Shown: positions 15,795-48,824 of the stretch, one piece after another
Position numbering within the stretch: position 1 is the first letter of the stretch
Layout of the letters: every line of letters begins with the position of its first letter
NCBI GenBank assembly: GCA_017615635.1
Contig: JAFZZR010000005.1
Location: 5,258-69,257, forward strand
Origin: Lentisphaeria bacterium
GTDB taxonomy: Bacteria > Verrucomicrobiota > Lentisphaeria > Victivallales > UBA1829
Reading direction: 5' to 3'
DNA length: 64,000 nucleotides
Translations under genes and position numbers: made by a program
The notes under the pieces: model-generated
What the model saw: only the letters and a program-made list of their open reading frames with translations
Database searches by the model: none
Told to the model about the DNA's origin: nothing

Positions 15795-15824
15795 GGCGCA
15801 GACCTTTCCCCATCCGGGTTGATG

Positions 15825-16835: not shown

Positions 16836-16849
16836 GGTCCGTTTCCTTT

Positions 16850-17578
16850 TTACTTAATGTCTCTGAGCCGGAATATGATTCCGGAAAGCATCATAACAAA
16901 AACGGCAAAGGCCACCCCGTACAGGGCGGTCCCCAGAATGTAGCTCCACGGCAGATCCACCTGATAGATCACGTGCTCCTTCATGTTGAAGAGGTCGAGG
17001 TCCGGGAGGATCCCTCCGTTGAGCACCGGGATCTTCAGCCGATGCGTCAGGGAGGAGAACCAGACCGCCATGAGCGCGATGATGGGCGCCGCCATTTCGG
17101 GGAAGGAGACGGCGCAGAAGGTGCAGATGGAGGTCATGGGGATGGCACTCAGGATGATCAGCAGCTGGATCTTCACATAGATCAGGAAGATCGGTTCCGG
17201 GAAGCAGCTGGCGTAGATGATGTAGGAGCCGATGGCGATCAGCGTGCAGACGACGCAGGCCACGGCGTAGATGCCCAGCACTTTGCCCCAGAGATACTTC
17301 ATGCGGCCCAGGGACTTCGTCAGGAACGTGGCGGCAATGCCTTCCCGGAGCTCGCGGGGAATATCGAATGTCAGGGAAAGCACCGAGAGGATCGCGGCCA
17401 CCTGATTCAGCAGGAGCGACATGTCCAGCAGCAGTTCTCTGTGACGGTTCAATGAGATTTCGTTGTAGCGGTACATGCTTCCCACGAGGATCAGCACGCA
17501 CGCCACCAGAAAATACACGACTTTCAGCTTCAGAATGTTTTTGCAGGCATTCTCCGCAATGGTCCATACCTCTTTCAT
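16850..17578 (-). CDS. ABC-2-type permease (permease A)
   Basis: About 6 TM segments. It has the ABC-2 hallmark FLTKSLGRMKYLWGKVLGIYA. ATGA overlap with the ATPase gene. Confidence 0.7.
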   Translation of the reverse strand: MKEVWTIAENACKNILKLKVVYFLVACVLILVGSMYRYNEISLNRHRELLLDMSLLLNQVAAILSVLSLTFDIPRELREGIAATFLTKSLGRMKYLWGKVLGIYAVACVVCTLIAIGSYIIYASCFPEPIFLIYVKIQLLIILSAIPMTSICTFCAVSFPEMAAPIIALMAVWFSSLTHRLKIPVLNGGILPDLDLFNMKEHVIYQVDLPWSYILGTALYGVAFAVFVMMLSGIIFRLRDIK

Positions 17579-18534: not shown

Positions 18535-18564
18535 GTTCGATCCTTTCGTGAGTTTGACAATGGT

Positions 18565-20984: not shown

Positions 20985-21024
20985 ATCAGGCTGATTTCCT
21001 TACACACGGTGCCTCGATGGCGCC

Positions 21025-23508: not shown

Positions 23509-23786
23509 CTCTGCTACTCTCCTGAAATTTATTCCATTGAAGGAAAAATTGAAACTCAAATCCGGTCAGCCGGAACGGTCCGGCCTTTTACTGGTAATGT
23601 AGCATGCGCGCGAGAAAAATCAAAGGGAGAGAACCCGGAACTTTCGATTTTTTTGCCTTTTTGTGGAAAAAAAACGGCAACAGAGCGGAAACGACCGGAA
23701 GGAAGACGAGTACCGGAACTCCCGGCAGTTTTTCCGGCGTCCCGCAAAAGTGTGAGACGCAGATGTTTCCGGATCCGGATCTTATT

Positions 23787-23808
23787 GGGGCAGGGCTGAT
23801 CCTGCCCC
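23787..23808 (-). terminator. GC-rich hairpin immediately 3' of the 1015-aa gene stop (no U-tract)
   Basis: GGGGCAGG-gctgat-CCTGCCCC is a perfect 8-bp stem starting 1 nt after the stop codon. It lacks a following T/U run, so it is either a factor-dependent terminator or an mRNA-stabilising hairpin. Confidence 0.3.
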
Positions 23809-23809
23809 G

Positions 23810-26800
23810 TTACCTGTCCTTGAAAAACTTCAGACTGTAACTCATCTTCCAGGTCGCAGCCTTGTGCGGATCGTTGTCCGGATAGGCGTCCGGCCAGATC
23901 ATTTCCAGCGAAGCGGACCCTTTGTCCCGCCAGACAAACAGCTGATCCACGTCGGGCGCGGAAAGTTCGATCCTGTATTGCCCGTTGATCGGACGGACTG
24001 CGAAAGTATCGCCCTTCAGCAGTCCGGGCTCCTTCTTGAGCCATTCCGAAAGAAACGGTTTGCCGCCTGGAAGTTTCGCTCCATCGCGGAGGAAGGCAAT
24101 ATGGCCGAGACTTCTGTCCGTGATTTCCCCCACCGTTACTTCCGAGGCCGGATCTTCGGGAAGCGCCGGCAGCGGCATGATGAAGTTGTTGACGTCCCGC
24201 AGCCGGAACGGACGGTAGCCGCCTTCCGGAACGATCTCGATATACGCCTTGATCTCCGGAGTATCTCTGGACAGCGTGTACTCCCGGCGGATGCGCAGTC
24301 CGGTGTAGGGCGGTTCCTGGATCACGAAGGAAAAACGGACCTTGACACTTTCCCGGTCAAACGAGAGGTCTTCGATGGCTATATCCCGTTTCCCCAGCTC
24401 GAAAGCACCCTGATCCATGAAAACGCCACGGCCGACAATGTTTGCCATGACATCTTTCCCCGCCTTCCAGACGCCTTCACCGGAATTCTTCAGATCCAGT
24501 TCCAGCGAATGGACCGGAGTGGTGATCACGTATTTATCCGGCGTTTTCATATAGCTCATTCCGTACTTGCTGCCGGACGAGGTGGTTTTACGGTAGTTTT
24601 CAATGGCGGTCTCCTCTTCCTTCGCATAATCGGGGAGGTCGGCGGAGGCTTCTTTCTTTTCCGGCGAAAACTCCAGCAGCTGATACGCCAGCGGCGCCAG
24701 TTTCAGCGTCAGTTTTCCTTCCCGTACCGGAAGGACTTCGCCTGTGAAGAGATCGGTAACGCTGCCTGTGCCGGGATCACAGAGTGGATGAAGGAAAATC
24801 GTCTCCCTCTGGTCGTTGTTGAAGATCAGAGACCAGCTCCGGCCGTCGGCGGCCTTCCGTTCCAGTGCGTAGTATCGTCCGGCGGCGTTGAACCCTTCCC
24901 GGATCTCACGGGTGTTCCGGACCAGTTTTCCCTGGTTCCAGTGCGGTTCGCCCAGCGCAATGAAATTCATTGTCTTGCGCATTTCGCTGACCTGTTCGCC
25001 GTTGGAAATGAAAAGGCCCTGCGCAATGCCGGGAAAATCCTCTTCTCCGGCGCAGAATGCCGCCGCCAGATACTGCATTCCCAGCAGCGGCGCCGAATAC
25101 GGCTTGTTCCAGCCGTTTTGGATCAGGGTGTATTTCGGCTTTTTCAGTTCCAGTGCTTCCCGTTCCAGACTGCGGAAAAAGTCCAGATTGCTCCAGTAGT
25201 TCATGGTTTCGAAACGGTCTGCAAAATCGTCAAACAGGCGGGATCGGCCCCCGTAGGCTTCCTCGTATTCTTCCTCCGTTTCTTTGCGGGGCGCAATTTG
25301 AACGGAACAGAACCCGAAGGCGGCATCCGGATTGATTTTTTTAACTGCTTCCACCACGGTCCGCACCGAGGCGGCCCGCTGACGACACCGGAAATCCACC
25401 CAGGCCCGGCGGTGTTTCTTCAGGATTTCCTCCCCCGTCAGATTTTCCGGCAGACCGTTCTCCTTTGCGAACGCCTTAATGCAATCCCGGCAGAAGCAGC
25501 TCGTCGTGACAGGCCCGATAACATACGGCTCGTAGTCCCAGGTGATGTAGCTTGCCTTTTTCAGGAGATTATAAAATTTTTTGCTCGAGGCCAATGATTT
25601 CCGGAGAAAATCCGGCCCGGCGGCCGCAAAGGCGCTGTCGCAGTAAAGCGGCACGGGCGCTCCGGAGGGATCTACCGCCTGCGGAAGATCCAGTATTTTC
25701 GGATTCCAGCTGTAAGGAATGCGCCAGTTAAGTTCCACATACGGCAGGTCAACCCAGCCCGATCTTTCCCAGTACTCTTTCAGCCGGATCCCCAGCGTGT
25801 TTTCCGGATCGGCGGCGTCGATCTGCGTCACCGGCATGGACTGCCAGGAGAAATACCGCCTTTTTCCCGGCAGTTTTCCTCCCGGATATCCGGAAATCTG
25901 TTTCACGGGGACCGTGAAGCTGATCTTCTTCCCTCCGTATTCGAAGTCCATCCCAATCGCGAACTCATCCGGGACCTGGTTCTCCGCGCAGAAGATCAGG
26001 CTGCCGCCCCAGGCTGCCCAGTCGTATTCCCTGCCGATCAGATACCGGTTCTCCTCGCCGGGAATTCTGACCAGTTTATCTGTTCCCCGTTTCATCATGT
26101 ACAGTTCGCACGACACCCCTTCTGGCGCAGTAATGGTCATGACGATGTCCCGGCGCGGCATGGTTTTGGAATTGAGCCGGAAGAAACCGACCCCGTCTTT
26201 TTCCAGCATGTACGGCGTTCCGGGCGGGAATCCCGTGAACCTCTCCTGAAACGGCTGATCCGGAAGAATGGCGTCATTCGCTTTCGGTCCGGGTGGCGGC
26301 ACGGCCTTCTGCCCCGTGTATTCGGTCAGTTCCGGATTCCGGAAATACATGGCCCGGTCCTCTCCCGGTTTTCGGGACAGATTGTACACGCACAGAAAAA
26401 TCGTCAGTTTCCGTGCTTCGGGGATCGAGCCCAGCGGGATGATGAATCCGGTCTGTATCCACTCTTTCTGCGGACCTCTGTAGCCTTGCAGCAAAGGACG
26501 GTGCACAACCAGTTTCTTTCCGTTTTCATCCAGCACCGAATACAATATCTCCGCCGGATGATCCAGCTGATCCGACTTCATGTCGATGGCAAAATAGTAG
26601 CTTTTGCCCGGTATCACATTGACTGTCTGGTAGAGCGAACTGTTGTAGTTGGCCGTTTTTTCGCTGATCCGGACGATCCCGTTCTCTGTTTTGTAGGCCT
26701 CTCTTGCGCCCTCCCAGGAGGCGCCGCCCCAGTGATCCGGGAGGAATCCGGTCCCACTGGCAAATTCCGGATTGCAAAACAGATTTTCTTCGCCCTGAAG

Positions 26801-26857
26801 GCTTGCTGCGGCGGCGGAAAGAATCAGCAGCCCGGCTATTGCTTTTTTGATATTCAT
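23810..26857 (-). CDS. secreted 1015-aa putative glycan-active enzyme: N-terminal CBM4_9-like module plus CxCxxC-containing catalytic-like region
   Basis: It has a signal peptide (MNIKKAIAGLLILSAAAASLQG). The CBM-like start is NLFCNPEFASG...WGGASWEG...YYFAIDMKSD. An internal SCFCRDCIKAF motif resembles the two DUF4838-like proteins in the window. Confidence 0.7.
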   Translation of the reverse strand: MNIKKAIAGLLILSAAAASLQGEENLFCNPEFASGTGFLPDHWGGASWEGAREAYKTENGIVRISEKTANYNSSLYQTVNVIPGKSYYFAIDMKSDQLDHPAEILYSVLDENGKKLVVHRPLLQGYRGPQKEWIQTGFIIPLGSIPEARKLTIFLCVYNLSRKPGEDRAMYFRNPELTEYTGQKAVPPPGPKANDAILPDQPFQERFTGFPPGTPYMLEKDGVGFFRLNSKTMPRRDIVMTITAPEGVSCELYMMKRGTDKLVRIPGEENRYLIGREYDWAAWGGSLIFCAENQVPDEFAIGMDFEYGGKKISFTVPVKQISGYPGGKLPGKRRYFSWQSMPVTQIDAADPENTLGIRLKEYWERSGWVDLPYVELNWRIPYSWNPKILDLPQAVDPSGAPVPLYCDSAFAAAGPDFLRKSLASSKKFYNLLKKASYITWDYEPYVIGPVTTSCFCRDCIKAFAKENGLPENLTGEEILKKHRRAWVDFRCRQRAASVRTVVEAVKKINPDAAFGFCSVQIAPRKETEEEYEEAYGGRSRLFDDFADRFETMNYWSNLDFFRSLEREALELKKPKYTLIQNGWNKPYSAPLLGMQYLAAAFCAGEEDFPGIAQGLFISNGEQVSEMRKTMNFIALGEPHWNQGKLVRNTREIREGFNAAGRYYALERKAADGRSWSLIFNNDQRETIFLHPLCDPGTGSVTDLFTGEVLPVREGKLTLKLAPLAYQLLEFSPEKKEASADLPDYAKEEETAIENYRKTTSSGSKYGMSYMKTPDKYVITTPVHSLELDLKNSGEGVWKAGKDVMANIVGRGVFMDQGAFELGKRDIAIEDLSFDRESVKVRFSFVIQEPPYTGLRIRREYTLSRDTPEIKAYIEIVPEGGYRPFRLRDVNNFIMPLPALPEDPASEVTVGEITDRSLGHIAFLRDGAKLPGGKPFLSEWLKKEPGLLKGDTFAVRPINGQYRIELSAPDVDQLFVWRDKGSASLEMIWPDAYPDNDPHKAATWKMSYSLKFFKDR

Positions 26858-26871
26858 CTAAAAACTCTCCG

Positions 26872-27705
26872 TCAGTGATTTTTCCCGCTGTACCGCAAAT
26901 AAGAATAATCATCCCAAAGAGATTTGTAGCGGGCGATCGAACCGTCGCAGTGAATCACATTCAACTCATTCTTGTGGCGCTTCGCGACCCGTACACCCAT
27001 ATCGTTTCGATAATCGGTAATGATGAAGCATACGGAACCGTCTCCGAACATCATGGTCGATGAAGGATATTTGATTCTCGTCTGGAGCATTCCGCTGTTG
27101 ATGCCTATCCCGCCGTGTCCGGGTCCCCAGTATTCTATCGCATTCTTTGCCAGACTCGAATAAGTTGCGTTGTAGATATACGTTGTGAAATCCTTGGAAT
27201 GAACGGCCAGTTTCCCGCTGGGATCGTCGGAGAGGAATATACTTCTGCTCTGCTCTTTTTCCGACTCCGGACAGCGCAGAAATCCATCCAGCGCCAAATA
27301 CCGGGTAGAGCGCTGACGACCGACCGTCGCCTGGGAAAAATATCCCAGACGCATCAGAATGTCCGCCCAGGTAGGTTCATATCGGTCGCTTGCGCTGATA
27401 TATGTCCACCCCATGAACGTTACGCTTTCGAGACGGTTCCCGTTTTCATCCGTAATCATTCTCGGCGGGAAATAATTGAAATCATTCGCATAACTCAGCG
27501 TCGACAACCCGATCTGCCGGAGATTGTTCTTGCATTCGAGATCGGTTGCATGGGACTTTGCCGAACTCAAAGCCGGCATCAGCATCCCTGCGAGAATGGC
27601 GATGATGGCGATGACGACCAGCAGTTCGATGAGCGTAAAACGCTTCAGGTATGGTCCTTCTTCGCTGAGGACGTGGATGAAAGTGCGGCTGTCGGATTTC
27701 AGCAT
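26872..27705 (-). CDS. prepilin-type N-terminal cleavage/methylation domain protein with H-X9-DG motif (pseudopilin-like)
   Basis: [27 protein letters not shown]-terminus and C-terminal [12 protein letters not shown]. It lies 14 nt upstream of the 1015-aa enzyme gene on the same strand. Confidence 0.85.
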
Positions 27706-27752: not shown

Positions 27753-27780
27753 ATTATACTCGCTTTTTCCGAAATGTCAA
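27753..27780 (-). promoter_or_regulatory. consensus sigma70-type promoter of the pseudopilin gene
   Basis: The minus strand reads TTGACATTTCGGAAAAAGCGAGTATAAT (TTGACA-16-TATAAT), about 45 nt upstream of ATG 27705. It matches the promoter at 51554-51581 at 27 of 31 positions. Confidence 0.6.
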
Positions 27781-32435: not shown

Positions 32436-34682
32436 TCAGGGGTGTAATACGGGTTCCAGTACGATCCGGTCTATGAAAATGGCATTGCTGTCTTCGGCTT
32501 TTCCTCCGGGGTAAGCCGGACCGGTAAATTTCATGCTGACATGGATCCTCCATGGCGAATCGGGATCCGCAGTCCAGGCCGGACTTTGCGGGAACTGGAC
32601 AAACCATTTGTTGGTCAGATAAATATATCCTGCCGGACGGGGACGAAACGTTTCCCCGATCGTATACCAGCGGTAGCCTGGACCTTTGATTTCCTCTCCG
32701 GTGATTCGTGCCGAAAAATGTTCGGAACGGGTCTGCTGGTCATATCCGCCGATCAGCACGGGTAAAACCCCCTGCCGGACACGGACCGCGTATCCGAGGG
32801 GGGACTCGGGGTCCTTGACCAGCGGTTCACCGCCTGCCCACCAGCTTGCCAGTTCGATCGGAATATCTATGCCGTTCGCCGCCTCGTTTTGCGGAGGGAT
32901 CGTTTCCGGCAGGATGTCATAAACATCCATTCTGGCGATTTTGGCGAGACAGTGCGCCTGCCTTTTCGGGTCGATGCAGGTTTCGATCGAAGTCCGAAGC
33001 GTTTCCTTCAAACGTTTTGCGGCAATCCGGGGATCCAGACCGTGTCCCGGATCCTCCAGATTGAATTTGCGGATAAAAAGTATGATCGCTTCATCGATCC
33101 CGGCACGGGCTTCGCGGACACGTCGAACCCGAACCGGATCGTCTTGAACGGCCGATTCCGCCTGTTCCAGCAGCTTATCGCAAGCGGAAACCGTCTTGCA
33201 ATCCAGATGGGTAAAGGAGAACGCGGACGGCATGAACGCGGTAATGAAAGGTTTCTTTTCCCGGACCGATGCAAGCAGCGTCAGCCGATATTGCCGAATG
33301 AACGGTGCCGCCTTCCCGTAATACCCGTTCAGGAACGTATTCAGCAGCGTATCGAAATCGGCGTCCGGGTCTTCCATCAGTTTTGCATGCAGCCAGGTTT
33401 TCATCACCGCCATGTCGGTATGATAAATATATTCCCGCTCGACGAAAGGAAACAGGACATTGTGCGCTCTGTAATACCGCAAGGTCTCCTGGAGGAAGAA
33501 TTCGCTTGGATACGGCAGTCCCCGGGCAAATCCGTTGAAGGATATGCCGTAGTCCCAAATTCCCAGACTGTCCGTCAGCCCGCCCCAGTCTTTAAGCCTT
33601 TGACGGAACGGTTCTTCGCCGGCTCCTTCCGGTCCGCCGGCAAAATTGTTGGCCGTATTGCAGAGCCGGATCACGATATTGTCTTCCAGCGTGATATTGC
33701 GCGGCGGCGCTTCTGTCTGAAAATATGCCAGTGTGGAAATTTTCAAATCCGGACGGAACTGCTTCAGTCTGCGGGCAAGCTGATTGATCAGATTCAGCTG
33801 CAGTCCGGACTCCGCATTTCCGTAATAGGCACGCAGTTGACTGCACCTTTCACAAACGCAGAAAGAGTTGTTGTCGTTTTGGGAAATATCGTAAATGCCG
33901 GGCGCGGGACTGCCGTTCCCTTCGGCTTTCGCCTCGTCGGCAAGAATGAAGCCCTGCAGTTTCTTCCACATGACGTCGACCAGTTCGGGATTGCTCAGAC
34001 ACAACTGTCCTTCCATCCGGTTCGGATTGCGATTCCCTTTCCGCGTCAGGGAAAAATATTCCGGATGCGTCTGAAAGAATTCCGCCTCGGGAACATACCG
34101 GTTGAACGTATGGACGCTGTACGGGGAACCATAGCGAAAGCCTCCGCCGTTGGCTGCGGAAATCCAGCGGTCTCCAAACGAGTTCAGACGGTTGAACGCC
34201 GCGAAATCGCCGTCATCCCATTTTTCACTGTAATCCGGAAATATCGCCCGGATCGGGAACGCCGGTTTTCCCCGCAAGTCCAGTTTCGGCAGACACAGTT
34301 CTTTTCGGTGCGGAATCTCCTTTTCGTGCATGCTGAAAAGAAGGATTCCCGCATAGCGTTCCAAAAAAACGGACACCGCATATGTCGTGCCGCGGCGGCC
34401 GCCGCCGAACAGGACAATTCGTCCTTCCACATTTTTGATGCACCATTCCTCCTCGCGGAGATCCTGCCCGAGCGATTTCGCCAGCGCAGTTTCTCCCACA
34501 TGAAATTCCGCGGGCTGCCCCTCAACCGTGATTTCCCCCTCTACGCTTTCCGACAGATATTTCCGCAGATCGGCAGCCGCCTTCTTCTCCCATATCTGCG
34601 GATCGTCCGGCAGAATGATTTTCACATCGGCGCCCAGACATGCTGCGGCACAGCACATCAGTCCGGCAAAATACTTCAGCAT
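32436..34682 (-). CDS. secreted DUF4838-like putative glycoside hydrolase
   Basis: It has a signal peptide (MLKYFAGLMCCAAACLGA), an N-terminal GH20b/GH67N-like module (RGTTYAVSVFLERYAG) and a CxCxxC motif (SFCVCERCSQL). The architecture is as I recall for DUF4838 proteins. Confidence 0.7.
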   Translation of the reverse strand: MLKYFAGLMCCAAACLGADVKIILPDDPQIWEKKAAADLRKYLSESVEGEITVEGQPAEFHVGETALAKSLGQDLREEEWCIKNVEGRIVLFGGGRRGTTYAVSVFLERYAGILLFSMHEKEIPHRKELCLPKLDLRGKPAFPIRAIFPDYSEKWDDGDFAAFNRLNSFGDRWISAANGGGFRYGSPYSVHTFNRYVPEAEFFQTHPEYFSLTRKGNRNPNRMEGQLCLSNPELVDVMWKKLQGFILADEAKAEGNGSPAPGIYDISQNDNNSFCVCERCSQLRAYYGNAESGLQLNLINQLARRLKQFRPDLKISTLAYFQTEAPPRNITLEDNIVIRLCNTANNFAGGPEGAGEEPFRQRLKDWGGLTDSLGIWDYGISFNGFARGLPYPSEFFLQETLRYYRAHNVLFPFVEREYIYHTDMAVMKTWLHAKLMEDPDADFDTLLNTFLNGYYGKAAPFIRQYRLTLLASVREKKPFITAFMPSAFSFTHLDCKTVSACDKLLEQAESAVQDDPVRVRRVREARAGIDEAIILFIRKFNLEDPGHGLDPRIAAKRLKETLRTSIETCIDPKRQAHCLAKIARMDVYDILPETIPPQNEAANGIDIPIELASWWAGGEPLVKDPESPLGYAVRVRQGVLPVLIGGYDQQTRSEHFSARITGEEIKGPGYRWYTIGETFRPRPAGYIYLTNKWFVQFPQSPAWTADPDSPWRIHVSMKFTGPAYPGGKAEDSNAIFIDRIVLEPVLHP

Positions 34683-34700
34683 ACGATGATCTCCCGCAGA

Positions 34701-35504
34701 TCAGAAAAGTTTTTTCCGCAATCCGGTCTGCATGAAAACGTACGCCCGGGAGCGGAAAGCTCTTTCGCTCAAATGGTGCCGGTGCAGCTCCTGCAGGTCC
34801 TCCGTCAGCATCGCTTCAGAACTGGAACGGGCCGATCCATCCAGAAAAACCGAGTTCGTTTTGTTGTTATGACGCATGTGAAATGTCGTGGTGGCTTCCC
34901 CGTAGTACTGATTGTCCCAGTCCTGACGGGAATAATCGTTCCGGGCCGTATCACTGAGCAGAGGGGTGCGGTTCGGACATTTTGCCGATCCTGTGATCAG
35001 GAAGTCCTGATCATTGGAATCGCCTGAAATCCGCAGTGACAGGTTCTTTTTTCCTGCGGCAATTTCATCCGTGTTATGTCCTCTCAAATAGGCCAGAGAA
35101 AGAAAGCCGTACACATTGTAGCGGCTGATGGTATCCGCATGAAAGGACGGACAGCGGACAAGCTTTGCCGGATAGATGATCGCATTTTCCTGCTCCGGCA
35201 GATAGCCGTTCTGGAACAGGATTATATACCACAAAGCCTCGCCTTTGGATCGCATCGCACAGATATTGCCGTTGAAGTCGTTGCTGTAACTGAGCAAACT
35301 GATCCCGCACTGTTTCAGATTGCCTATGCACTGGATCGATTGGGCGCTCTGCTTTGCTTTTCCCAGAGCCGGCAGAAGCATTCCCGCGAGAATGGCAATG
35401 ATGGCAATGACGACGAGCAGTTCGATCAGCGTGAATCGCTTCAGGTATGAGGTATGAGGTATGAGGTATGAGGTTCTTAATGCAGATCCCCGGTTCGTCA
35501 TCAT
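34701..35504 (-). CDS. prepilin-type N-terminal domain protein with H-X9-DG motif (pseudopilin-like); heptamer repeat in codons 11-21
   Basis: [47 protein letters not shown] with C-terminal [12 protein letters not shown]. It lies 18 nt upstream of the DUF4838-like gene. The [11 protein letters not shown] residues are encoded by (CATACCT)x4. Confidence 0.85.
35443..35474. repeat. left arm of a perfect 32-bp inverted repeat: (AGGTATG)x4+AGGT on the plus strand
   Basis: Read directly: tc AGGTATG AGGTATG AGGTATG AGGTATG AGGT tc. It lies inside the 5' coding region of the pseudopilin gene. Confidence 0.95.
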
Positions 35505-35806
35505 GATTACAGCCCTTTCTGAATTTTTGTTCTCATTGTAAGTTGTGTGGATCCCCGTATTCGAATCAGTTCTTCACAATCTGCGTGAAGACTGTTAAAC
35601 TGCCGTTCCGTGAGGTATTTTGAGGCGAGGAGAAGACGCAGCCAGTAAGATGTCTCCCGTGCTTCCTTGTATGCAATGGAAAATTTTGCCTGAAAATCCG
35701 GGGATGACCGGGCGCCTCTGCTTTCCTCCAGATTTGCTCCGATACTCGTCCCCGCAGGGCAAAGGAAAATGACTTCTCCATCATCAAGCTGTCGGAACTC
35801 TCTTTT

Positions 35807-35838
35807 ACCTCATACCTCATACCTCATACCTCATACCT
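35807..35838. repeat. right arm of a perfect 32-bp inverted repeat: ACCT+(CATACCT)x4 on the plus strand
   Basis: It is the exact reverse complement of 35443-35474. It lies 332 bp away and 68 nt downstream of the OCD-family gene stop (35906). Confidence 0.95.
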
Positions 35839-35905
35839 TGATGGTTTCTCCTTTCTGAAATCTTGTTTTATCGTGACAGCCTTTTCCGGTACCGGGCGTG
35901 TACGG

Positions 35906-36922
35906 TCATTCCCAATAGGGGACGACCGTTCCGCCGCCTTCCTTCAGGGCTTTGCGATAGCAGCGGGTGATGACGGCGAGATCTTCGGCGCCGAGGCCCA
36001 CGCTGTTGAAGTAAATGATCTCATCGTCATTTTCTCTTCCGGGCTTGCGGCCCAGCAGAATGTCTCCGAGTTCGGCGTGAAGCTGTTCCTCCTTGAAGAG
36101 GCCGTCGCGGTACATCAGGGAGACGGTGCTGATCTGGCGGTGTTTGACGCCTTCCCAGTCGTCGACCACGACCTTTCCGCATTTCGGCAGACAGGCATAT
36201 TCGTATTCGAAGTCGGCCAGATTCAGACAGGTCTGTCCGGGATGGAGCCAGTCCGCGAAAACCACCGGGACGGCGGAAATGGTCACGGTGATGACGATAT
36301 CGCTTTCCAGGGATGCCTGCTTCGGATCGTCCACGGCGATGACATCCATATCGAGCTTGGCGGACATCTCTTCCGCGTACGCGCGGGACTGTTCCGGACG
36401 GATGTCATAGACGAAGCATTTCTTGAGGGCGGGACGGACGATTTTTGCCGCCTCGAGCTGAAGCCGCGCCTGAAATCCGGCACCCATGAGCAGGATTGTC
36501 GAGGCGTCTTTCTTCGCAAGTTCGTCGATGGCCAGCGCGCTGGCGGCGCCGGTGCGGACGCCGGAGACCCGGGTGCAGTCCGCCACGCACAGGGGGATCT
36601 TGGTGTCGGGATCGTTGAGGATCACCAGGCCGGTGGCGCGGGGCAGTCCTTTTTTGTAGTTCTGCGGATTGGATCCGAGCCATTTGATCCCGGCCATGTC
36701 GATGTCCCCGCCGATGCAGCAGGGCATGGCATTGCACCGGCCGTAGAGATTTTCATCTTCCAGCGAGGTTCCCCAGCGGAGCACCACCTTGCTGGGGCTG
36801 TTCACCTTGTGTTGAACATGGAGAGTCAGGACTTTGCGGACGTCTTCGATCGCGGCGCGGATGTCGTACGCACCCAGAGCCCGAAGCTGGGTGTCGTTCA
36901 GAAACATCAGATCCAGTTTCAT
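35906..36922 (-). CDS. ornithine cyclodeaminase/mu-crystallin family NAD(P)-dependent enzyme
   Basis: It shows OCD_Mu_crystall-type organisation: RTGAASALAIDELA, Rossmann LLMGAGFQARLQL, and a C-terminal SVGLGAEDLA. Confidence 0.85.
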   Translation of the reverse strand: MKLDLMFLNDTQLRALGAYDIRAAIEDVRKVLTLHVQHKVNSPSKVVLRWGTSLEDENLYGRCNAMPCCIGGDIDMAGIKWLGSNPQNYKKGLPRATGLVILNDPDTKIPLCVADCTRVSGVRTGAASALAIDELAKKDASTILLMGAGFQARLQLEAAKIVRPALKKCFVYDIRPEQSRAYAEEMSAKLDMDVIAVDDPKQASLESDIVITVTISAVPVVFADWLHPGQTCLNLADFEYEYACLPKCGKVVVDDWEGVKHRQISTVSLMYRDGLFKEEQLHAELGDILLGRKPGRENDDEIIYFNSVGLGAEDLAVITRCYRKALKEGGGTVVPYWE

Positions 36923-36966
36923 GGAATGGCTCCTTTCTGTATAGTTTTCATGATTTGTTTTTGTCG

Positions 36967-38052
36967 TTAGACTTTCCCATTGTGTGCTTTCAGCTGCGCC
37001 GCCAGGGAATCGGATATTTCAAACCGGGTCGGGATCACCAGATGCCGTGGAGTCGGATCATCAATCAGGGTCAGGATCAATTCGGATAAGGTGCGGGCGA
37101 ATTGATCTTCATCGCAGACCAGATGGCAGAAGTCATCATCGATCCGGGAATAATCCTGCCGCAGACTGGAATAAAAACGGTACGTCACGATCTGATAATC
37201 GGATCCGCAGGTCGAACCGGTCCGTTCCAATTCATCCTTGAGCGCCGCGGCCGCAGGGGTGCTTTCAACCCAGTAAAGCCGATGATCCCGGATCCGTTCC
37301 AGATTTTCGTGAACTGCCCGGACGCCGTCCCGATACGTCGCCAGACCGGATGAGATCAGCCCGGAACCATACAGCACAACCCTGGACCGGGTAAGGGAAA
37401 TATGGTGTTTTCTGAGTTGTCTACGGAGCAGATGCAGTTTTTCCTCCGCATCCCGGTCACAATACCCGAAAAAGAACGAATCCCTGAGCAGCGGCAGCGG
37501 GATTTGTTCCGTTGCCTGCCTGAACGATGTTTCATGATCGTACCGGATCGACGAGATCAGCGAATGGAATCTCGCCGGTTTCCAAATATCGGATCCGGTG
37601 TAGTAGCAAATGACCCGCCGGCTGATACGATGGAAGAGTTCGATGGTCTGCCCATTCAGGAGAGAGGAGCCGACAATATAAAGATCGGCAATGTCGGATT
37701 TGATGATGTGCCGGACGTGTAAAATCATTTTCGGCGAAGAAAAGTCCACCCGGATCAGCGTCAGCGTATAGCCGCTGGCCTGGAGATGGTCGCATAATTG
37801 GCGAAGCATGAAACGGCAGGTATCCAGATCGTGATCCATTCGCCCCATTACAAAACCGATCTTGAACGTACGATATCGGGGCTTTATACCGTTTTTGACC
37901 GGATACCCGTGCGTTTGGCACAAAGACAGGATTTCCGCCCGCTTTTCAGCGGAAATCTGCCAGGCACGATGGGGATTGAGCGCACGGGAAACCGTTGACT
38001 GGCTTACACGGGCCAGTCTGGCGATTTCCGCTCCGGAAATCTTTGGATTCAT
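36967..38052 (-). CDS. LacI-family transcriptional regulator
   Basis: HTH ISGAEIARLARVSQSTVSRALNP plus a sugar-binding-type domain. ATG at 38052 follows AGGAGA; the track start at 38118 was rejected. Confidence 0.8.
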   Translation of the reverse strand: MNPKISGAEIARLARVSQSTVSRALNPHRAWQISAEKRAEILSLCQTHGYPVKNGIKPRYRTFKIGFVMGRMDHDLDTCRFMLRQLCDHLQASGYTLTLIRVDFSSPKMILHVRHIIKSDIADLYIVGSSLLNGQTIELFHRISRRVICYYTGSDIWKPARFHSLISSIRYDHETSFRQATEQIPLPLLRDSFFFGYCDRDAEEKLHLLRRQLRKHHISLTRSRVVLYGSGLISSGLATYRDGVRAVHENLERIRDHRLYWVESTPAAAALKDELERTGSTCGSDYQIVTYRFYSSLRQDYSRIDDDFCHLVCDEDQFARTLSELILTLIDDPTPRHLVIPTRFEISDSLAAQLKAHNGKV

Positions 38053-38158
38053 GCTGGTTCTCCTGTCTCTTCCGAAAATAATATACAGCGCGTGCCGAAT
38101 AAAACAAATGTCATGCATAAAAATCTGAATTAAAATATAAATATTATTTGTAATAAGT

Positions 38159-43153: not shown

Positions 43154-44551
43154 TCAGAAGAACCTGTTGAAGATGCCCAGGCCGAACAGATACAGAATCA
43201 GAACGGGAAGAATCACGGCTGCGTACCATTTCAGCCATGCAGGGAAGCGGAGTCCCTTGCCCGTGTTGACCTCCGCCAGAAATTTTTTCCATGTCCATCC
43301 CGAGTCCCGGCAGCAGAAGAAGACGATCAGAATGGATCCCAGGGGCAGACAGATATCGCTGATGAGCCAGTCTTCGAAATCCAAAATCGTGCTTTTCGTG
43401 CCCAGCGGGTGGATGTGCCTCCAGATGTTGAACCCGAAAACGCAGGGAAGGGAGAGAACCCCGACGACGAGGAAATTCACCCATGCCGCTTTTCTGCGTG
43501 AAAAATGCCATTCGTCCATCATGAAGGCGATCAGATTTTCAAAAACGGTAATGATCGTGGTCAGGGCCGCGATACTGAGGAAAAGGAAGAATACCGATCC
43601 CAGGATCCGGCCTCCGGGCAGATGGTTGAATATCCCGGTCAGGGAAAACAGAACCAGTCCGGGGCCTCCGTCCACCTGGATCCCATAACTGAAACAGGCG
43701 GCGAAGACCAGGATGCCGGAGAGAAGCGCCGCCAGCGTATCGCAGGAAATGATCAGGATTGATTCCGTAGCCAGCGAGTTTTTTTTGTCCGTGTAACTTC
43801 CGAAGATCTCCAGAGCGCCGATGCCCAGCGAAAGCGTGAAAAATGCCTGCGACATGGCCCCGCCCGCAATTTTGAAGATGTTCGTGTCTCCGGGAAGAGA
43901 GGGCATCAGATAGAATTTCATGCCCGAGCCTGCGCCCGGAAGAAACAGCGCATACAGACTCAGGACCGACAGCAGAACGAAAAGTCCGGCCATCAGGATC
44001 TTGGTTATCCGCTCGACGCCGCGGCGGAGTCCGAATGCGCAGATGCCCGATCCGATCAGTACGGTCAGGATCATGTAGAAACTCATCTTCCCGGGATTGT
44101 TCATCAGGGATGTGAACTGGTTCTTCAGTTCCGCCTCCGTGGAAAGAGCCGCAAGGCGTCCGGTCAGGAAATCGACGAAATAGGTAAGCATCCAGCCCGT
44201 CACCGTGGTATACATGATCATGAGGATCAGATTCCCCGAGAAGGCCACGCCCGCCGGAAAACGCCAGAGACTGGGCCGTTTTTCGGGGAGGTCGCGGAAT
44301 GCACCATACAGATTCCGCCGGGACGCCCGGCCCACGGCCAGCTCCATGCACATCACGGGGAATCCGAGCAGCAGGAGGAACAGCAGATAGAAGAGGACGA
44401 AGAGTCCGCCTCCGTTGGCGCCCGCCATGTAGGGGAAGCGCCACACGTTTCCCAGTCCGATGGCACTGCCGGCCGCCAGCATGAGGAACCCGAACCTTGA
44501 GCTCGTAGTTTCTCTGGCTTGACTCATTTCCGTTTCCTGCGGTCCGTTCAT
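43154..44551 (-). CDS. neurotransmitter:sodium symporter (NSS/SNF) family transporter
   Basis: AAGSAIGLGNVWRFPYMAGANGGG hallmark and about 11-12 TM segments. The start ATG overlaps the stop of the upstream glycosyltransferase (ATGA). Confidence 0.9.
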   Translation of the reverse strand: MNGPQETEMSQARETTSSRFGFLMLAAGSAIGLGNVWRFPYMAGANGGGLFVLFYLLFLLLLGFPVMCMELAVGRASRRNLYGAFRDLPEKRPSLWRFPAGVAFSGNLILMIMYTTVTGWMLTYFVDFLTGRLAALSTEAELKNQFTSLMNNPGKMSFYMILTVLIGSGICAFGLRRGVERITKILMAGLFVLLSVLSLYALFLPGAGSGMKFYLMPSLPGDTNIFKIAGGAMSQAFFTLSLGIGALEIFGSYTDKKNSLATESILIISCDTLAALLSGILVFAACFSYGIQVDGGPGLVLFSLTGIFNHLPGGRILGSVFFLFLSIAALTTIITVFENLIAFMMDEWHFSRRKAAWVNFLVVGVLSLPCVFGFNIWRHIHPLGTKSTILDFEDWLISDICLPLGSILIVFFCCRDSGWTWKKFLAEVNTGKGLRFPAWLKWYAAVILPVLILYLFGLGIFNRFF

Positions 44552-45720
44552 TTTCCGGTTCTTCCTTTTTCGGCGGATTCCTGTAGCGCGTTTTTCCGGC
44601 CCGAGGCGAACTTCTCCAGAATATCGGCCATGCAGGCCGCCCGGCGGAAAAAGTCCGTGCGGTCCGCGTATTCGTTCGCCTTTCTCCTGTATTCTCCGGA
44701 ATCGTTCCGCATTTTCCGGAAAAGCGCCCGCGCGGTTTCATCGGACCACGGGTCGGGCACGACTTCCGATCCGGCCTCCCGGACCAGAGAGGAAAAGCCG
44801 CAGCTCCCGGAGCAGAGAACGGGTACGCCGCAGCAGAGCGATTCGGCGATGACCGATCCGGCCGCCTCGTTGTAGGAGAGCAAAACCAGAAGATCGGCGG
44901 CGGGCAGCAGCACCTCCGTATCGTTTCTCGGGCCTGCAAAAAGGACATTGCCGTTCAGGCCGTACCGGCGGATCAGCGGAAGGACCTGATTCTGCCGGCC
45001 CGAGCCCGCCACGAGAAGTTTTGTCGTTCTCCTCTCGTCTTCCGGAAGGGACGCCAGGATCCGGATCGTGCGGTCCAGGCCCTTCCGCAGAAAATCCGAA
45101 CCGATGAAGATCGCCAGAAAATCGTTTTCTCCGATCCCGAACTCACGGCGCGCGTCCAGCCTCTTTTTTTCTGTCCAGTTTGCCCGGACGGTCCGGTATT
45201 TTTCGGGGATCCCGGACGGAAGAAGATGGAAACGCGATTCTTCCGTGCCGTAGCGGCGTTGGAAGGTTTCCTTCTGCCGTTCCGTGATGCAGAGGATCTG
45301 CGTGGGACTTCCCGGCGAAAAGAGTTCCCGTTCGATCCGGGTGAAGATCCGGTATCGAGGCAGAAGTGCCACCGTGAGCCGGGAACGTTTCTGGAGAAAA
45401 TGATCCAGAATGCAGTCGTCGGCGGCGAAATAGAAATCGCATCCCGTGATCCGGTTCATGGCCACGGTGACGTCGAATTTTCCATCGGCCAGAGCGTGGA
45501 ATGCCCGTTCGAATTCCAGCGCACGGGCGTGATTGGTGCGGCTTTTCAACGGGATCTGCCGTACGGAGAATCCCGGCAGTTCCGGCAGTTCCGACTCAAT
45601 CTCTCCCGTAAACAGGGTGACCTGCCATCCGCGGGCGAGAAGTTCCCGGATGGACCGCATGGTGTCGAGCTGGAGTCCGCCGAAGCTGAAGTATTTGAAG
45701 AGAGCGAAAGCAATTTTCAA
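44548..45720 (-). CDS. waaG: GT4 glycosyltransferase resembling LPS core glucosyltransferase I (WaaG/RfaG)
   Basis: (M)KIAFALFKYFSFGGLQLDTMRSI... aligns from residue 1 with my recollection of E. coli WaaG (MIVAFCLYKYFPFGGLQRDFMRI...; also YFAADxC, LPxGI). The start codon is TTG at 45720. Confidence 0.75.
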   Translation of the reverse strand: MKIAFALFKYFSFGGLQLDTMRSIRELLARGWQVTLFTGEIESELPELPGFSVRQIPLKSRTNHARALEFERAFHALADGKFDVTVAMNRITGCDFYFAADDCILDHFLQKRSRLTVALLPRYRIFTRIERELFSPGSPTQILCITERQKETFQRRYGTEESRFHLLPSGIPEKYRTVRANWTEKKRLDARREFGIGENDFLAIFIGSDFLRKGLDRTIRILASLPEDERRTTKLLVAGSGRQNQVLPLIRRYGLNGNVLFAGPRNDTEVLLPAADLLVLLSYNEAAGSVIAESLCCGVPVLCSGSCGFSSLVREAGSEVVPDPWSDETARALFRKMRNDSGEYRRKANEYADRTDFFRRAACMADILEKFASGRKNALQESAEKGRTGK

Positions 45721-45841
45721 GGTGACCGAGACTCCGTTCGTGTACTGTTCGAGGGAAAGATGCGGAGCTAATATACTGTATTTTTGCGGAAAGGCAATAT
45801 CTTTTTCCGGAAAAATAACATCTTTTCCGAAATGGTCCCGC

Positions 45842-45871
45842 TTGAAGAGATTTCCGTGTTGTGCTATATTA
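45842..45871 (+). promoter_or_regulatory. sigma70-type promoter with extended -10 (GH4-uxaE operon)
   Basis: TTGAAG-17 nt-TATATT within TGCTATATTA, about 55 nt upstream of ATG 45929. Confidence 0.5.
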
Positions 45872-45928
45872 CCAGAATGCGGGGAATATTCTCCGCTCTC
45901 CCACTAACAAGAGTAAGGAAGAAAAAGA

Positions 45929-47278
45929 ATGGCCAAGATTGCATTTACCGGCGCGGGCAGCACCGTCTTTGTCCGCAGTATCATCGGCGACTGTATGTTC
46001 ATGGACTCGCTGAAGGATTCCGAAATCGCACTGTACGACATCGATGCGGAACGGCTGAAGGAATCTCAGAAAATTCTTTCCGTTCTCAATGCGAACATGA
46101 ACGGCAACCGGATGAAGATCCGCACCTACTGCGGGCCCGCCAACCGGAAAAAAGCCCTGAAGAACGCAGACTTCGTGGTGAATGCGATCCAGGTGGGCGG
46201 ATACAAGCCCTCCACCGTGATCGACTTCGAGATCCCGAAGAAATACGGACTGCGTCAGACCATCGCCGATACGCTGGGAATCGGCGGGATCTTCCGCGCT
46301 CTGCGCACGATCCCCGTCATGCTGGATTTCGCGCACGACATGGAAGAGGTCTGCCCGAACGCGCTGTTCCTCAACTACAGCAATCCCATGGCCATGCTCA
46401 CGGGTGCGCTCCTGCATGGAAGCGGGATCCAGACGGTCGGGCTTTGCCACAGCGTTCAGGTGTGCGTGGCCTCGCTTCTCCACACGCTGCGCGGCATCAC
46501 CTACGAGGAGTCGGAAAAGCACAAGATCACGGACAAGATCGCCGGGATCAACCACATGGCCTGGCTGCTGGATTTCCGGTATGACGGGAAGGACATCTAC
46601 GACGAGCTTCGCGCCGAGGCGAAGGCCATGGTCCCCAAGATGTGCCGTGCGAAGAAGAACAAGTCCGCCAACATCGTCCGTCTGGAAATCATGAACAAGT
46701 TCGGCTACTACGTGACCGAGTCCAGCGAGCACAACGCGGAATACACGCCCTACTGGATCAAGAGCCAGTATCCCGAACTCATCACGAAGTACAATATCCC
46801 GCTGGATGAATATCCGCGCCGCTGTGTCAATCAGATCGCCGCCTGGAAAAAACAGTACAAGGAGATCCTGGCGGATCCGCATCTGACCCGCACGCTTTCC
46901 CGCGAATACGGCGCCCGGATCATGAATGCCGTTGTTACCGATACGCCGTACCGCATCAACGGAAACGTCCTGAACCGCGGATACATCGAAAACCTGCCGT
47001 CCGATGCCGTTGTGGAAGTGCCCTGCCTGGTGGACAGCCGCGGCGTCCACGGTACGGTGATCGGCCGTCTTCCCACTCAGTGCGCCGCACTGAACATGAC
47101 CAACGTCAACCCGCAGCTGCTGACCATCGAGGCGGCGCTGACGCGGAAAAAGGATACCGTGTATCAGGCGGCGATGCTGGATCCCCATACGGCCGCCGAG
47201 CTGCCCATCGACAAGATCGTTGCCATGTGCGACGACCTGTTCAAGGCCCATGGAAACATGATCCCGAAATACCGCTGA
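45929..47278 (+). CDS. glycoside hydrolase family 4 (NAD+/Mn2+-dependent alpha-galactosidase/alpha-galacturonidase type)
   Basis: It has the N-terminal Rossmann KIAFTGAGSTVF, the NYSNPMAM motif and the GLCHS catalytic Cys motif typical of GH4. Confidence 0.88.
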   Translation: MAKIAFTGAGSTVFVRSIIGDCMFMDSLKDSEIALYDIDAERLKESQKILSVLNANMNGNRMKIRTYCGPANRKKALKNADFVVNAIQVGGYKPSTVIDFEIPKKYGLRQTIADTLGIGGIFRALRTIPVMLDFAHDMEEVCPNALFLNYSNPMAMLTGALLHGSGIQTVGLCHSVQVCVASLLHTLRGITYEESEKHKITDKIAGINHMAWLLDFRYDGKDIYDELRAEAKAMVPKMCRAKKNKSANIVRLEIMNKFGYYVTESSEHNAEYTPYWIKSQYPELITKYNIPLDEYPRRCVNQIAAWKKQYKEILADPHLTRTLSREYGARIMNAVVTDTPYRINGNVLNRGYIENLPSDAVVEVPCLVDSRGVHGTVIGRLPTQCAALNMTNVNPQLLTIEAALTRKKDTVYQAAMLDPHTAAELPIDKIVAMCDDLFKAHGNMIPKYR

Positions 47279-47298
47279 CAACCGAATAAGGAGCCATT

Positions 47299-48807: not shown

Positions 48808-48824
48808 AAGAATCGTACACAAGG

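Follow-up and report, generated by a model that had tools for sequence, protein, structure and literature searches.

The perfect inverted repeat that brackets the start codon of a pseudopilin-like gene in the window (the whole stretch of 64,000 nucleotides of Lentisphaeria DNA analysed here) probably represents the terminal inverted arrays of a small, multi-copy cassette of the IVS type, which carries a four-helix-bundle (4HB) gene and sits inside the start of the pilin-like gene; most likely, that gene is not switched ON and OFF by the repeat. Cassettes of this kind, about 0.4–0.6 kb long, would comprise a PF05635 Avd/S23p-like gene between an upstream purine-rich array and its downstream reverse complement, and appear to have spread among the DUF1559 pseudopilin-like paralogs of rumen and gut Lentisphaeria, landing exactly after the FTLIELLV codons. 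Because an RBS, an ATG, leader codons and a new FTLIELLV box come with the cassette, the interrupted gene would stay translatable. The window copy seems to be a decayed, non-autonomous derivative, with a 73-nt frameshift deletion in the 4HB gene and with the left spacer and the old start lost. Its features, in gene-strand order, are as follows:

35906..36922 (-): OCD/mu-crystallin gene, upstream
35850..35867 (-): native upstream/RBS region of the pilin-like gene, AACAAGATTTCAGAAAGG; drives ATGAGGGGTAAACAC-TTCACG in the cassette-free allele
35839..35844 (-): left-spacer remnant CCATCA, the last 6 nt of a conserved 41-nt left spacer
35807..35838 (-): upstream (5') heptamer array, (AGGTATG)x4+AGGT on the gene strand; homologous arms in other copies
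35753..35784 (-): 4HB N-terminal fragment, ATGATGGAGAAGTCATTTTCCTTTGCCCTGCG = MMEKSFSFALR, sharing the frame of ORF 35566-35820; aligns with the beginning of the full-length copies (128 aa)
35752..35753 (-): junction of the frameshifting 73-nt deletion within the 4HB gene, from the alignment of cassette copies
35507..35752 (-): C-terminal two-thirds of the 4HB gene, in a second frame; stop TAA at 35507-35509, no in-frame start codon
35513..35520 (-): cassette-borne ribosome-binding region for the pilin-like gene, AGAAAGGG, inside the end of the 4HB ORF
35475..35504 (-): start codon and first 10 leader codons, cassette-borne; identical leader on a different paralog, P0007
35443..35474 (-): downstream (3') heptamer array, (ACCTCAT)x4+ACCT on the gene strand; translated, 11 residues
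35412..35442 (-): GAAGCGA linker (35436-35442) and FTLIELLV-coding box (35412-35435); the box is the cassette target and flanking repeat
34701..35504 (-): pseudopilin-like gene, 267 aa, with a 22-aa cassette-derived leader; N_methyl motif and weak DUF1559

The arms and their surroundings

Direct re-reading bore out the preliminary description of the arms: they occupy 35443-35474 and 35807-35838, are 32 nt long each and 100% complementary, and lie 332 nt apart. Tandem Repeats Finder gives them a period of 7, with 4.6 and 4.7 copies and 100% matches, and the window has 7 occurrences of the 14-mer AGGTATGAGGTATG with at most 2 mismatches, all within the two arms, compared with an expectation of 0.09 by shuffling. 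It also holds, as had been reported, that the left arm is translated directly before KRFTLIELL, inside ORF 34701-35504(-), that the start ATG (35504) lies within the bracketed segment, and that CATACCTGAAGCG occurs just once at the corresponding position of the paralog 26872-27705. The upstream arm supplies the ATGs where the 4HB ORF begins, and ORF 35566-35820(-) starts at one of them. Since the same arms are found in independent assemblies (ENA contig k141_5563160, JGI rumen contigs and a contig from a second sample), the repeat is not an assembly artefact; in addition, an NCBI MAG protein carries the same leader as the window pilin-like gene. The equal copy number of the two arms had been taken as a sign of constraint or of a recent event, a view that did not survive comparison, as the equality is peculiar to the window copy: in other cassette copies the upstream arm has 3.5–7.6 units against 4.57 in the coding arm. 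The downstream array is open in all three frames, and it would be tolerated because of this and because it falls in a dispensable leader peptide. We also considered the arrays as three-frame translational stops insulating the cassette, an idea that was rejected: they close 2.13 frames, against 1.96 in composition-matched shuffles.

The repeat had further been thought to bracket a promoter. This was abandoned because a promoter and terminator scan of 34600-37200, which does not cover the promoter types of this phylum, detected no sigma-70-like site on the gene strand. The same scan gave no terminator-like site in this interval, the stretch between the OCD gene and the arms included, so that read-through from the OCD gene across both arms is plausible. 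Rfam has no matches in 34000-37500 nor in a full-length cassette copy, and therefore no known intron or riboswitch is involved. In agreement with the preliminary description, no recombinase, and likewise no transposase or reverse transcriptase, was found when 39 long window ORFs and the 5 genes around the repeat were scanned against Pfam, although about half of these were without any match and some of the chosen ORFs may be on the wrong strand.

A cassette repeated among pseudopilin-like genes

A near-identical cassette precedes many other DUF1559 pseudopilin paralogs in rumen and gut Lentisphaeria. Close homologues number 1835, mostly on sub-kb contigs, and sequence searches place many near-identical copies at unrelated sites, as expected of MITEs and other TIR elements; identical 4HB proteins occur at three different loci. 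In nine different genes the insertion point falls precisely behind the FTLIELLV codons, and the old start remains upstream of the cassette: each interrupted gene retains its own RBS-ATG and 14 residues, followed directly by the 41-nt spacer and the arm, and full copies read ...FTLIELLV, then GACACTACTTGCTTTTGATGTGTTTTGAGCTGCAGCCATCA, then the arm. These nine genes have a second, target-derived box just upstream of the cassette, which keeps target-specific synonymous codons up to the junction. The two flanking boxes differ at several synonymous sites and lie outside the arms, by 41 nt on the left and 7 nt on the right; being non-identical, they are not a classical target-site duplication. Since neither the window nor the surroundings of the cassettes examined yielded a transposase, integrase or reverse transcriptase, it is from the distribution of the cassettes alone that we infer mobility.

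A cassette-free allele of the window locus exists in four samples (L004-L007), in which the flanks are otherwise near-identical and the OCD stop is followed by 65 nt and then by ATGAGGGGTAAACAC-TTCACG. Set against the window allele, these samples show sporadic presence and absence at the same site among related strains, as is the case with rRNA IVSs. The gene order around the cassettes is constant (regulator, 4HB, pilin-like gene, glycoside hydrolase), and AGAAAGGG is kept in all copies, directly 5' of TAA-TC-ATGATG; it resembles the native sequence at 35850-35867 (direct repeat D2). The window holds no second cassette copy, the matches there being conserved pilin N-termini only. In the window copy GGAGAAA is joined directly to CCATCA, the remainder of the spacer and what would be left of the old gene start being absent, presumably through a 77-nt deletion that took the old start and left spacer. 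An intact ancestor of the window allele, with old start, spacer and cassette at the OCD locus, was sought via P0130/P0128 and not recovered; the contigs reached in this way begin inside the cassette or come from another locus.

A decayed gene between the arms

The preliminary description was right in seeing that the repeat brackets a start codon and that one arm is translated; it missed the decayed PF05635 gene between the arms and the repeated nature of the cassette. The bracketed segment is in fact a frameshifted PF05635/TIGR02436 4HB ("23S rRNA IVS protein") gene, followed by the pilin RBS and ATG. It matches Pfam 23S_rRNA_IVP with an E value of 2.9e-17 (profile positions 38-103 of 106) and TIGR02436 with an E value of 3e-18, and its full-length relatives of 128 aa are 90–93% identical. 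The 73 nt are absent alike from the window copy, L011, L112, L113 and L111 and present in L012 and L108, the deleted derivative occurring at five loci. The arms persist in deletion derivatives, including those with very little of the 4HB gene left. Between cassette types the dN/dS of the 4HB gene is 0.02–0.07, and the 4HB protein is, as judged from its sequence variation, under strong purifying selection and functional; dS between types is about 1–2, and therefore the pairing of 4HB and pilin genes is old. The closest solved structure, 2RLD, has five chains. We know of no function assigned in 30 years to the 4HB/S23p/Avd-like family outside diversity-generating retroelements (DGRs).

Arms across the 4HB family

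The arm units covary by cassette type, the pairs being AGGTATG/CATACCT, AGAGATG/CATCTCT and AAAGATG/CATCTTT. Duplexes between arms of the same type have energies of -45 to -70 kcal/mol, compared with -15 to -35 across types and about -22 for shuffled arms. The architecture extends far beyond the Lentisphaeria: in a survey of inverted repeats at 4HB loci, with ungapped scoring and shuffles as the control, 71/74 distant loci from many phyla have flanking inverted repeats scoring above all shuffles. A period of 7 was found in 68/70 arms tested at such loci, and the median score of a locus's own inverted repeat is 18, versus 8 for cross-locus and 8 for direct comparisons. Both ends have arrays of a lineage-specific heptamer, inverted with respect to each other, in which one position is often degenerate. 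Across phyla, 4HB genes have the same arm architecture in contexts where no start codon is bracketed, and homologous cassettes occupy unrelated intergenic sites, cas operons and 23S rRNA. A search of the available literature for a link between PF05635 and heptamer arrays found no paper.

What the arms do

As part of the preferred explanation, an IVS-type cassette, the complementarity of the arms would be maintained because the cassette needs it, and the arms would most likely pair in the read-through transcript as a 32-bp stem, as they do in rRNA IVSs. Such a stem would hide the 4HB start and be a probable RNase III substrate. An RNA duplex had been one of the original proposals: it is nearest to the known IVS relatives, and the 32-bp stem is present in both the MFE and the centroid structure (z = -5.1) and dominates the predicted fold. 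Against it, the mismatches in 75 arm pairs comprise 48 G.U and 51 A.C (p = 0.84), that is, no G.U excess, and mismatches amount to about 12% in the arms of the family as a whole; the RNA-stem reading is thereby weakened. RNase III cleavage of the stem also fits poorly with a cassette that preserves its host gene, because the pilin RBS and ATG lie in the loop and would be lost.

The repeat had also been read as a switch of the pilin-like gene. In one version the 32-bp arms recombine and flip 35475-35806, removing the RBS and ATG from the gene. A perfect 32-bp inverted repeat around a start codon invites this reading, as does the flipped state, which would be OFF (the calculation that the frame runs back to the TGA at 35705-35707 is arithmetically correct, with no ATG, GTG or TTG on the way); moreover, RecA could physically bring about inversion between 32-bp repeats, at a low frequency. 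We nonetheless consider it barely conceivable here. None of 34 contigs (about 20 loci) is flipped, although 28 were retrieved via the 4HB gene whatever its orientation, and the 4HB and pilin genes are co-oriented in all of them; the interior is a co-oriented coding gene with no promoter detected on the gene strand, the window has no detected recombinase, and elsewhere in the family, across phyla, the architecture occurs in unrelated contexts with no start codon between the arms. One foreign contig (L003) ends exactly at the inner edge of an arm, which might be counted as inversion heterogeneity; it was set aside as uninformative, because a 32-bp inverted repeat alone makes such a branch at k <= 33. 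The other version, slipped-strand (SSR) phase variation, in which the reading frame would shift past codon 10 whenever the coding arm gained or lost one 7-nt unit, is very unlikely. Its appeal is that the unit is not a multiple of 3 and that the array is perfect and lies inside the reading frame, as in SSR loci; unit number does vary in the upstream arm, so slippage occurs over evolutionary time. However, the coding arm is 32 nt long in 11/11 intact A-type copies from different loci and samples, even though DNA-based retrievals would reveal out-of-frame variants, and the sole length variant seen is a net +33-nt insertion, in frame. This pattern is that of purifying selection on the frame and unlike that of a contingency locus.

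Two further explanations concern the nature of the arms and of the cassette itself. It is rather unlikely that the arms are DNA-level or single-strand recognition arrays bound by a pentameric 4HB protein, with RNA pairing a by-product, and that this binding unites the two ends so that host or trans-acting enzymes can excise, insert or copy the element. Multiple subterminal transposase-binding repeats in Tn7, Mu and hAT elements offer a model. Such arrays would account for inverted, lineage-specific heptamers at both ends, often with a degenerate position, for the lack of a G.U-over-A.C bias, for unequal unit numbers in the two arms, for units that covary with cassette type, for strong purifying selection on the 4HB protein and for the retention of arms by derivatives whose 4HB gene is nearly gone. 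On the other side, the flanking boxes lie outside the arms, which are therefore not the very ends of the mobile unit, and no partner enzyme was found. To our knowledge, PF05635 proteins have no recognised nucleic-acid binding specificity or catalytic activity. Arms of about 4–5 units would suit a protein with the five chains of 2RLD, and S23p is a homopentamer (PMC4990558).

It is improbable that the cassette is not mobile at all and that the 4HB gene is a vertically inherited operon partner of the pilin-like genes, such as a regulator or a chaperone, with the arms serving as a translational-coupling or attenuation device and the shared 5' modules arising by gene conversion through the N-terminal box. 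The constant gene order, the low dN/dS with high dS between types, and a conserved box that provides homology for conversion all agree with this, and part of the pattern could indeed reflect vertical descent and gene conversion among paralogs instead of transposition. However, target-specific codons reach up to the junction in nine genes, which is unexpected for RecA crossovers across a 24-bp box; old starts persist upstream as dead remnants; the same locus has a cassette-free allele; identical 4HB proteins sit at three different loci; and other phyla have homologous cassettes in unrelated intergenic sites, cas operons and 23S rRNA.

Comparison with known systems

The cassette shares features with several known systems and differs from each of them: (i) The 23S rRNA IVSs of Coxiella burnetii, Leptospira and Brucella are likewise about 0.4 kb long, with an inverted-repeat stem of about 28–32 bp and a PF05635 ORF in the loop that starts near or in the stem, and they too are sporadic among strains, with an ORF that is often decayed or untranslated (PMC4990558). 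The Coxiella IVS measures 428–444 nt and has a 28-bp terminal stem, which RNase III cleaves, and a loop that contains the S23p ORF (PMC4990558). In contrast, the window cassette lies in a protein-coding operon, where it interrupts a pilin-like gene near its 5' end, rather than in 23S rRNA helix 9, 25 or 45; its arms are tandem heptamers, the downstream one translated, and it carries a replacement RBS, ATG, leader and box. RNase III excision is known from the Coxiella IVS only, and the cut predicted in the window cassette would remove the start of the host gene. (ii) PF05635 resembles Avd (cd16375) of DGRs and belongs to the same fold and family neighbourhood (PMC10053308). However, no reverse transcriptase or template/variable repeat pair lies beside any cassette examined, it is the 5' end of the target that has the duplicated box, and the differences show no adenine specificity. 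(iii) As in invertons (fimS-type switches and the invertible promoters of Bacteroides), inverted repeats surround the expression signals of a surface-protein gene; unlike them, the cassette has no detected promoter or recombinase, a single orientation in 34 contigs and a coding interior. (iv) With MITEs and non-autonomous TIR elements it shares small size, multiple copies, terminal inverted repeats and the continued spread of internally deleted derivatives, but it lacks an identical target-site duplication and a known transposase-bearing autonomous partner, and it enters a coding box at a specific site and in a specific orientation, restoring the gene's 5' end. (v) Some integrative elements, such as islands in tRNA gene 3' ends, carry a copy of the target segment, so that the interrupted gene stays intact. 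The cassette also carries a target copy, and its two flanking copies differ in sequence; unlike these islands, it replaces the 5' coding end and translation signals, is only about 0.5 kb long and has no integrase. (vi) Intergenic heptamer arrays of unknown function include TAACTGA in Beggiatoaceae and cyanobacteria (PMC4679880) and GGGAATC in Xanthomonas, with 70–75 convergent pairs (PMC4692102). They resemble the arms in being tandem heptamers in intergenic or 5' positions, sometimes in inverted pairs and with variable unit number, although neither report links them to PF05635 genes (PMC4679880, PMC4692102).

Implications

We tentatively propose that PF05635 genes with paired, inverted, lineage-specific heptamer arrays form an unrecognised, pan-bacterial class of selfish cassettes, of which the 23S IVSs would be a special case, whose 4HB protein recognises its own arrays and whose Lentisphaeria form homes to the FTLIELLV box. 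If this is true, recognition of its own arrays by an oligomeric 4HB protein would drive propagation or RNA processing, the Lentisphaeria cassette would have evolved homing to the pseudopilin box with a translated terminal repeat and a spare start, and some unexplained pairs of inverted heptamer arrays elsewhere, for example in Xanthomonas, might be accounted for. For the 4HB family, arrays at 71/74 distant members, covariation and purifying selection together yield a testable hypothesis, either of recognition of the arrays by the protein or of stem processing.

The result also bears on annotation. A perfect repeat bracketing a start codon resembles a textbook inverton or contingency locus, yet here it is probably the footprint of a cassette; inverton callers would flag such repeats, and pairs around PF05635 genes deserve recognition as a class. 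The cassette would likewise explain why many DUF1559 proteins of gut Lentisphaeria have peculiar, long leaders (TSYLIPH..., SSFISHL...). Finally, a 0.5-kb element that targets a coding box shared by paralogs and brings a replacement start would represent an unusual route to harmlessness for the host, resembling in this respect the rRNA IVSs, which exploit RNase III to the same end.

Results

The perfect inverted repeat reported in the preliminary description was borne out: its arms, 35443-35474 and 35807-35838, are 32 nt each, perfectly complementary and 332 nt apart, and in Tandem Repeats Finder both have a period of 7, with 4.6-4.7 copies and 100% matches. The heptamer dimer has 7 matches in the window, all within the two arms, against 0.09 expected. 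The left arm does lie, as had been described, inside a pilin-like ORF, where it encodes the 11 residues immediately ahead of KRFTLIELL; the product carries an N-terminal methylation motif and weak DUF1559 similarity, and its relatives, from Lentisphaeria, are annotated as prepilin-type/DUF1559. The arm arrangement was found in independent assemblies and is therefore not an artefact. In gene order, the neighbourhood reads:

36967-38118, minus strand, LacI-type regulator
35906-36922, minus strand, OCD/mu-crystallin gene, followed by the repeat
34701-35504, minus strand, pilin-like gene
32436-34682, minus strand, DUF4838 gene
minus strand, GH28 gene, following the DUF4838 gene

Read on the gene strand, 35806-35510 encodes a protein fragment closed by a TAA (35507-35509) two bases ahead of the pilin ATG. 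In profile searches the fragment hit PF05635 (23S rRNA-intervening sequence protein; E 2.9e-17) over profile positions 38-103 of 106, and TIGR02436 (four helix bundle protein, hereafter 4HB; E 3e-18). The 4HB N-terminal residues, MMEKSFSFALR, lie in another frame (ORF 35566-35820, with its ATG within the upstream arm), and alignment with full-length 128-aa relatives reveals a 73-nt internal deletion at 35752/35753. Owing to this split frame and deletion, the bracketed segment is mostly a dead 4HB gene, and only the ~45 nt at its end belong to the pilin-like gene, as its RBS, ATG and first codons. A promoter scan found no sigma-70-like promoter on the gene strand of the segment, and no terminator was found between the OCD gene and the segment.

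Elsewhere the gene is under constraint: with dN/dS of 0.02-0.07 between cassette types (dS ~1-2), the full-length protein is clearly functional. Its closest solved relative is 2RLD, with five chains, and the family resembles Avd of DGRs (PMC10053308).

The fragment has 1835 close homologues. Nearly all measure 126-130 aa, and most lie on very short contigs, a pattern typical of assembly-breaking repeats. The close copies examined all share one layout: first a regulator or some other gene, then an upstream heptamer array, followed by the 4HB gene, TAA-TC-ATGATG, ~10 leader codons, the complementary downstream array, GAAGCGA, and the FTLIELLVV... of a DUF1559 gene. Upstream of the cassette, nine different genes retain their original RBS, ATG and leader (MKKRK-, MKQHLSSLQR-, ...RTTLRKT-, MKERD-, MSKKS-, MYRH-, ...KTVRS-, MKKKSM- and MRQRKN-), each running into FTLIELLV and then abruptly into a common 41-nt spacer, GACACTACTTGCTTTTGATGTGTTTTGAGCTGCAGCCATCA, and the upstream array. 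The left copy of this FTLIELLV-coding box keeps gene-specific synonymous codons right to the junction, and the right copy travels with the cassette; the unusual TTCACATTAATTGAATTGCTCGT, for example, is identical in four loci. One identical 130-aa 4HB protein occurs at three different loci, the derivative with the 73-nt deletion is common to five, and the first 48 residues of the window protein recur unchanged in P0007, a retrieved paralog with 42% overall identity. Most likely the arms are the arrays that terminate an IVS-type 4HB cassette, and the window copy of it is a non-autonomous relic. Its most likely effect on the host gene is to substitute a 22-aa leader and the translation start; a long-range stem in the mRNA is a potential further one. 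To reach new boxes the cassette might use trans-acting recombination, break-induced copying, or a retro-type process with an Avd-like partner.

Some copies depart from the simple picture. At one locus (L012, 535-600) the displaced leader MKQHLSSLQR holds CATCTCTCATCTCT, which is the unit of the other type of cassette. An A-type cassette (AGGTATG/CATACCT arms) thus seems to have entered a gene whose leader already derived from a C-type one, as in serial invasion. In a goat-rumen MAG (L026, 1880-1960) the 4HB gene leads not into the complementary array but into a second direct copy of the upstream one, then into the first bases of another 4HB-like start shortly before the contig ends, which may be a tandem or rearranged cassette. 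At L117 (60-130) the upstream array runs straight into the final third of the 4HB gene, with arms kept and the pilin-like gene intact.

Empty and filled alleles of the window gene were both recovered. Its 90% cluster has four N-terminal types, the commonest being MRGKH-FTLIELL (249 aa; contigs from four samples). In that allele ATGAGGGGTAAACAC-TTCACGCTGATCGAACTG stands 65 nt after the OCD stop, there is neither 4HB gene nor arrays, and the sequences on either side are nearly identical to those of the window. In the window allele the native upstream sequence is retained to GGAGAAA, where it meets CCATCA, the six bases that close the left spacer of the cassette. In the simplest history the cassette inserted after FTLIELLV, and ~77 nt comprising the old start, the box and the greater part of the spacer were then lost, a loss that we infer because an intact intermediate was looked for at this locus and not found. 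The ortholog also occurs with a different cassette type (CATCTCT arms, leader MMNTRGNFKLSSFISHLSSLKQ).

An 18-nt direct repeat, CCTTTCTGAAwTyTTGTT, lies at 35514-35531 and 35850-35867, so that the RBS and 4HB C-terminal codons supplied by the cassette are similar to the gene's native upstream region. A similar relic is seen upstream of the old start at another locus (L112), which suggests that insertion and decay have recurred, or that host sequence was captured.

Two further DUF1559 paralogs lie in the window. The 22-aa leader region (27640-27705) of the gene at 26872-27705(-) opens like the cassette leader of locus L021 (MLKSKHSS...) and has CATACCTGAAGCG at its end; with no 4HB gene left, it resembles the decayed 3' part of a former cassette. 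Upstream is a promoter-like consensus, TTGACA-16 nt-TATAAT (27753-27780). At 54379-54420(+) the third paralog has a short leader of 14 residues and no cassette. The window therefore holds one filled box, one relic and one empty box.

Three unit types occur, always matched between both arms of a cassette: AGGTATG/CATACCT, AGAGATG/CATCTCT and AAAGATG/CATCTTT; more distant copies contain mixed arrays. Own-type arms are predicted to form duplexes of -45 to -70 kcal/mol, cross-type arms of -15 to -35, and shuffled partners of ~-22 +/- 4. Unit number is not as a rule equal between arms, the upstream one ranging from ~3.5 to 7.6 units among copies. Derivatives stripped of most of the 4HB gene still retain their arms.

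The architecture extends across the family. Among 74 more distant 4HB genes from species-representative genomes (Bacteroidota, Planctomycetota, Acidobacteriota, Patescibacteria, Verrucomicrobiota, Ignavibacteriota, Cyanobacteria and others), the inverted repeat flanking the ORF beat all 20 shuffles at 71 loci, with period 7 in 68 of the 70 arms tested. The units themselves are lineage-specific (GAATTAG, AGTTAAG, AGAATTT, GAAGGGT, CAAAGAG, GATGACA and others). The median inverted score was 18 within loci and 8 across them (direct, 8), own exceeding cross in 70/74. These distant cassettes (L027-L103) are packed tightly between neighbouring host genes; in L045, for example, the upstream array starts at the stop codon of the gene before it, and ~5 nt separate the downstream array from the next ATG.

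Discussion

What the arms do was originally framed as an invertible switch, slipped-strand phase variation or an RNA duplex. For the switch the arithmetic was right, the flipped state having no start and a frame closed by the TGA at 35705-35707, but no flipped copy was seen: the 4HB and pilin genes are co-oriented in 34/34 contigs (~20 loci). A scan of window ORFs, many long ones lacking a Pfam match, detected no recombinase. Many such ORFs, of 244-1015 aa with no match at E <= 1e-5, lie in 13468-26857 and 43542-48822, and some may be wrong-strand picks of simple ORF selection. A contig from an independent sample (L003, 3521-3553) breaks off exactly at the upstream arm's inner edge; this does not count as evidence for an inversion, being compatible with an assembly-graph branch from the 32-bp repeat itself. 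A flip would also fuse the cassette ATG in frame to a 365-aa ORF antisense to the OCD gene (35873-36970(+)), giving 397 aa, probably a meaningless GC-rich antisense ORF. Slippage finds no support in the coding arm, whose length is invariant (32 nt in 11/11 intact A-type copies), the sole variant being an in-frame insertion. A 34-nt insertion, ATTGTCCTCCATAGCACGCACTGCGAAGGAGGAT, able to form its own hairpin, splits the coding (3') arm at no fewer than three loci (at least L104, L106 and L107; protein P0129), adds LSSIARTAKED in frame and weakens the duplex (-46 and -29 vs -65 kcal/mol).

We give slightly higher weight to the arms acting as an RNA stem in a read-through transcript, because the homologous ORF-bearing 23S rRNA IVSs, the closest known elements, are experimentally characterised; in a 481-nt transcript model the 32-bp stem is predicted in both MFE and centroid structures (-159.2 kcal/mol, z = -5.1). 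Yet two observations weigh against so simple a role: of the 270 mismatches counted in arms from 75 loci, G.U-type and A.C-type are equally represented (48 vs 51), and cleavage would strip the pilin RBS and ATG, both of which lie in the loop. Close behind, the arms may be binding arrays for an oligomeric 4HB protein, a reading placed there because it would account for the heptamer periodicity, the degenerate unit positions and the lack of wobble bias. The arrays could possibly work in both ways together.

An IVS that has a terminal stem and bears S23p, the 4HB homologue of rRNA IVSs, is an already known kind of element. The Lentisphaeria cassette sits in a protein-coding gene, has a translated terminal repeat, replaces the 5' end of its host gene and specifically targets the FTLIELLV box, each of these being new as far as the literature was searched. 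None of the papers retrieved by that search links PF05635 to heptamer arrays; unexplained pairs of inverted heptamer arrays have been published in Xanthomonas (PMC4692102) and may be related. The generalisation that inverted heptamer arrays enclose PF05635 genes is, within the same literature, likewise new.
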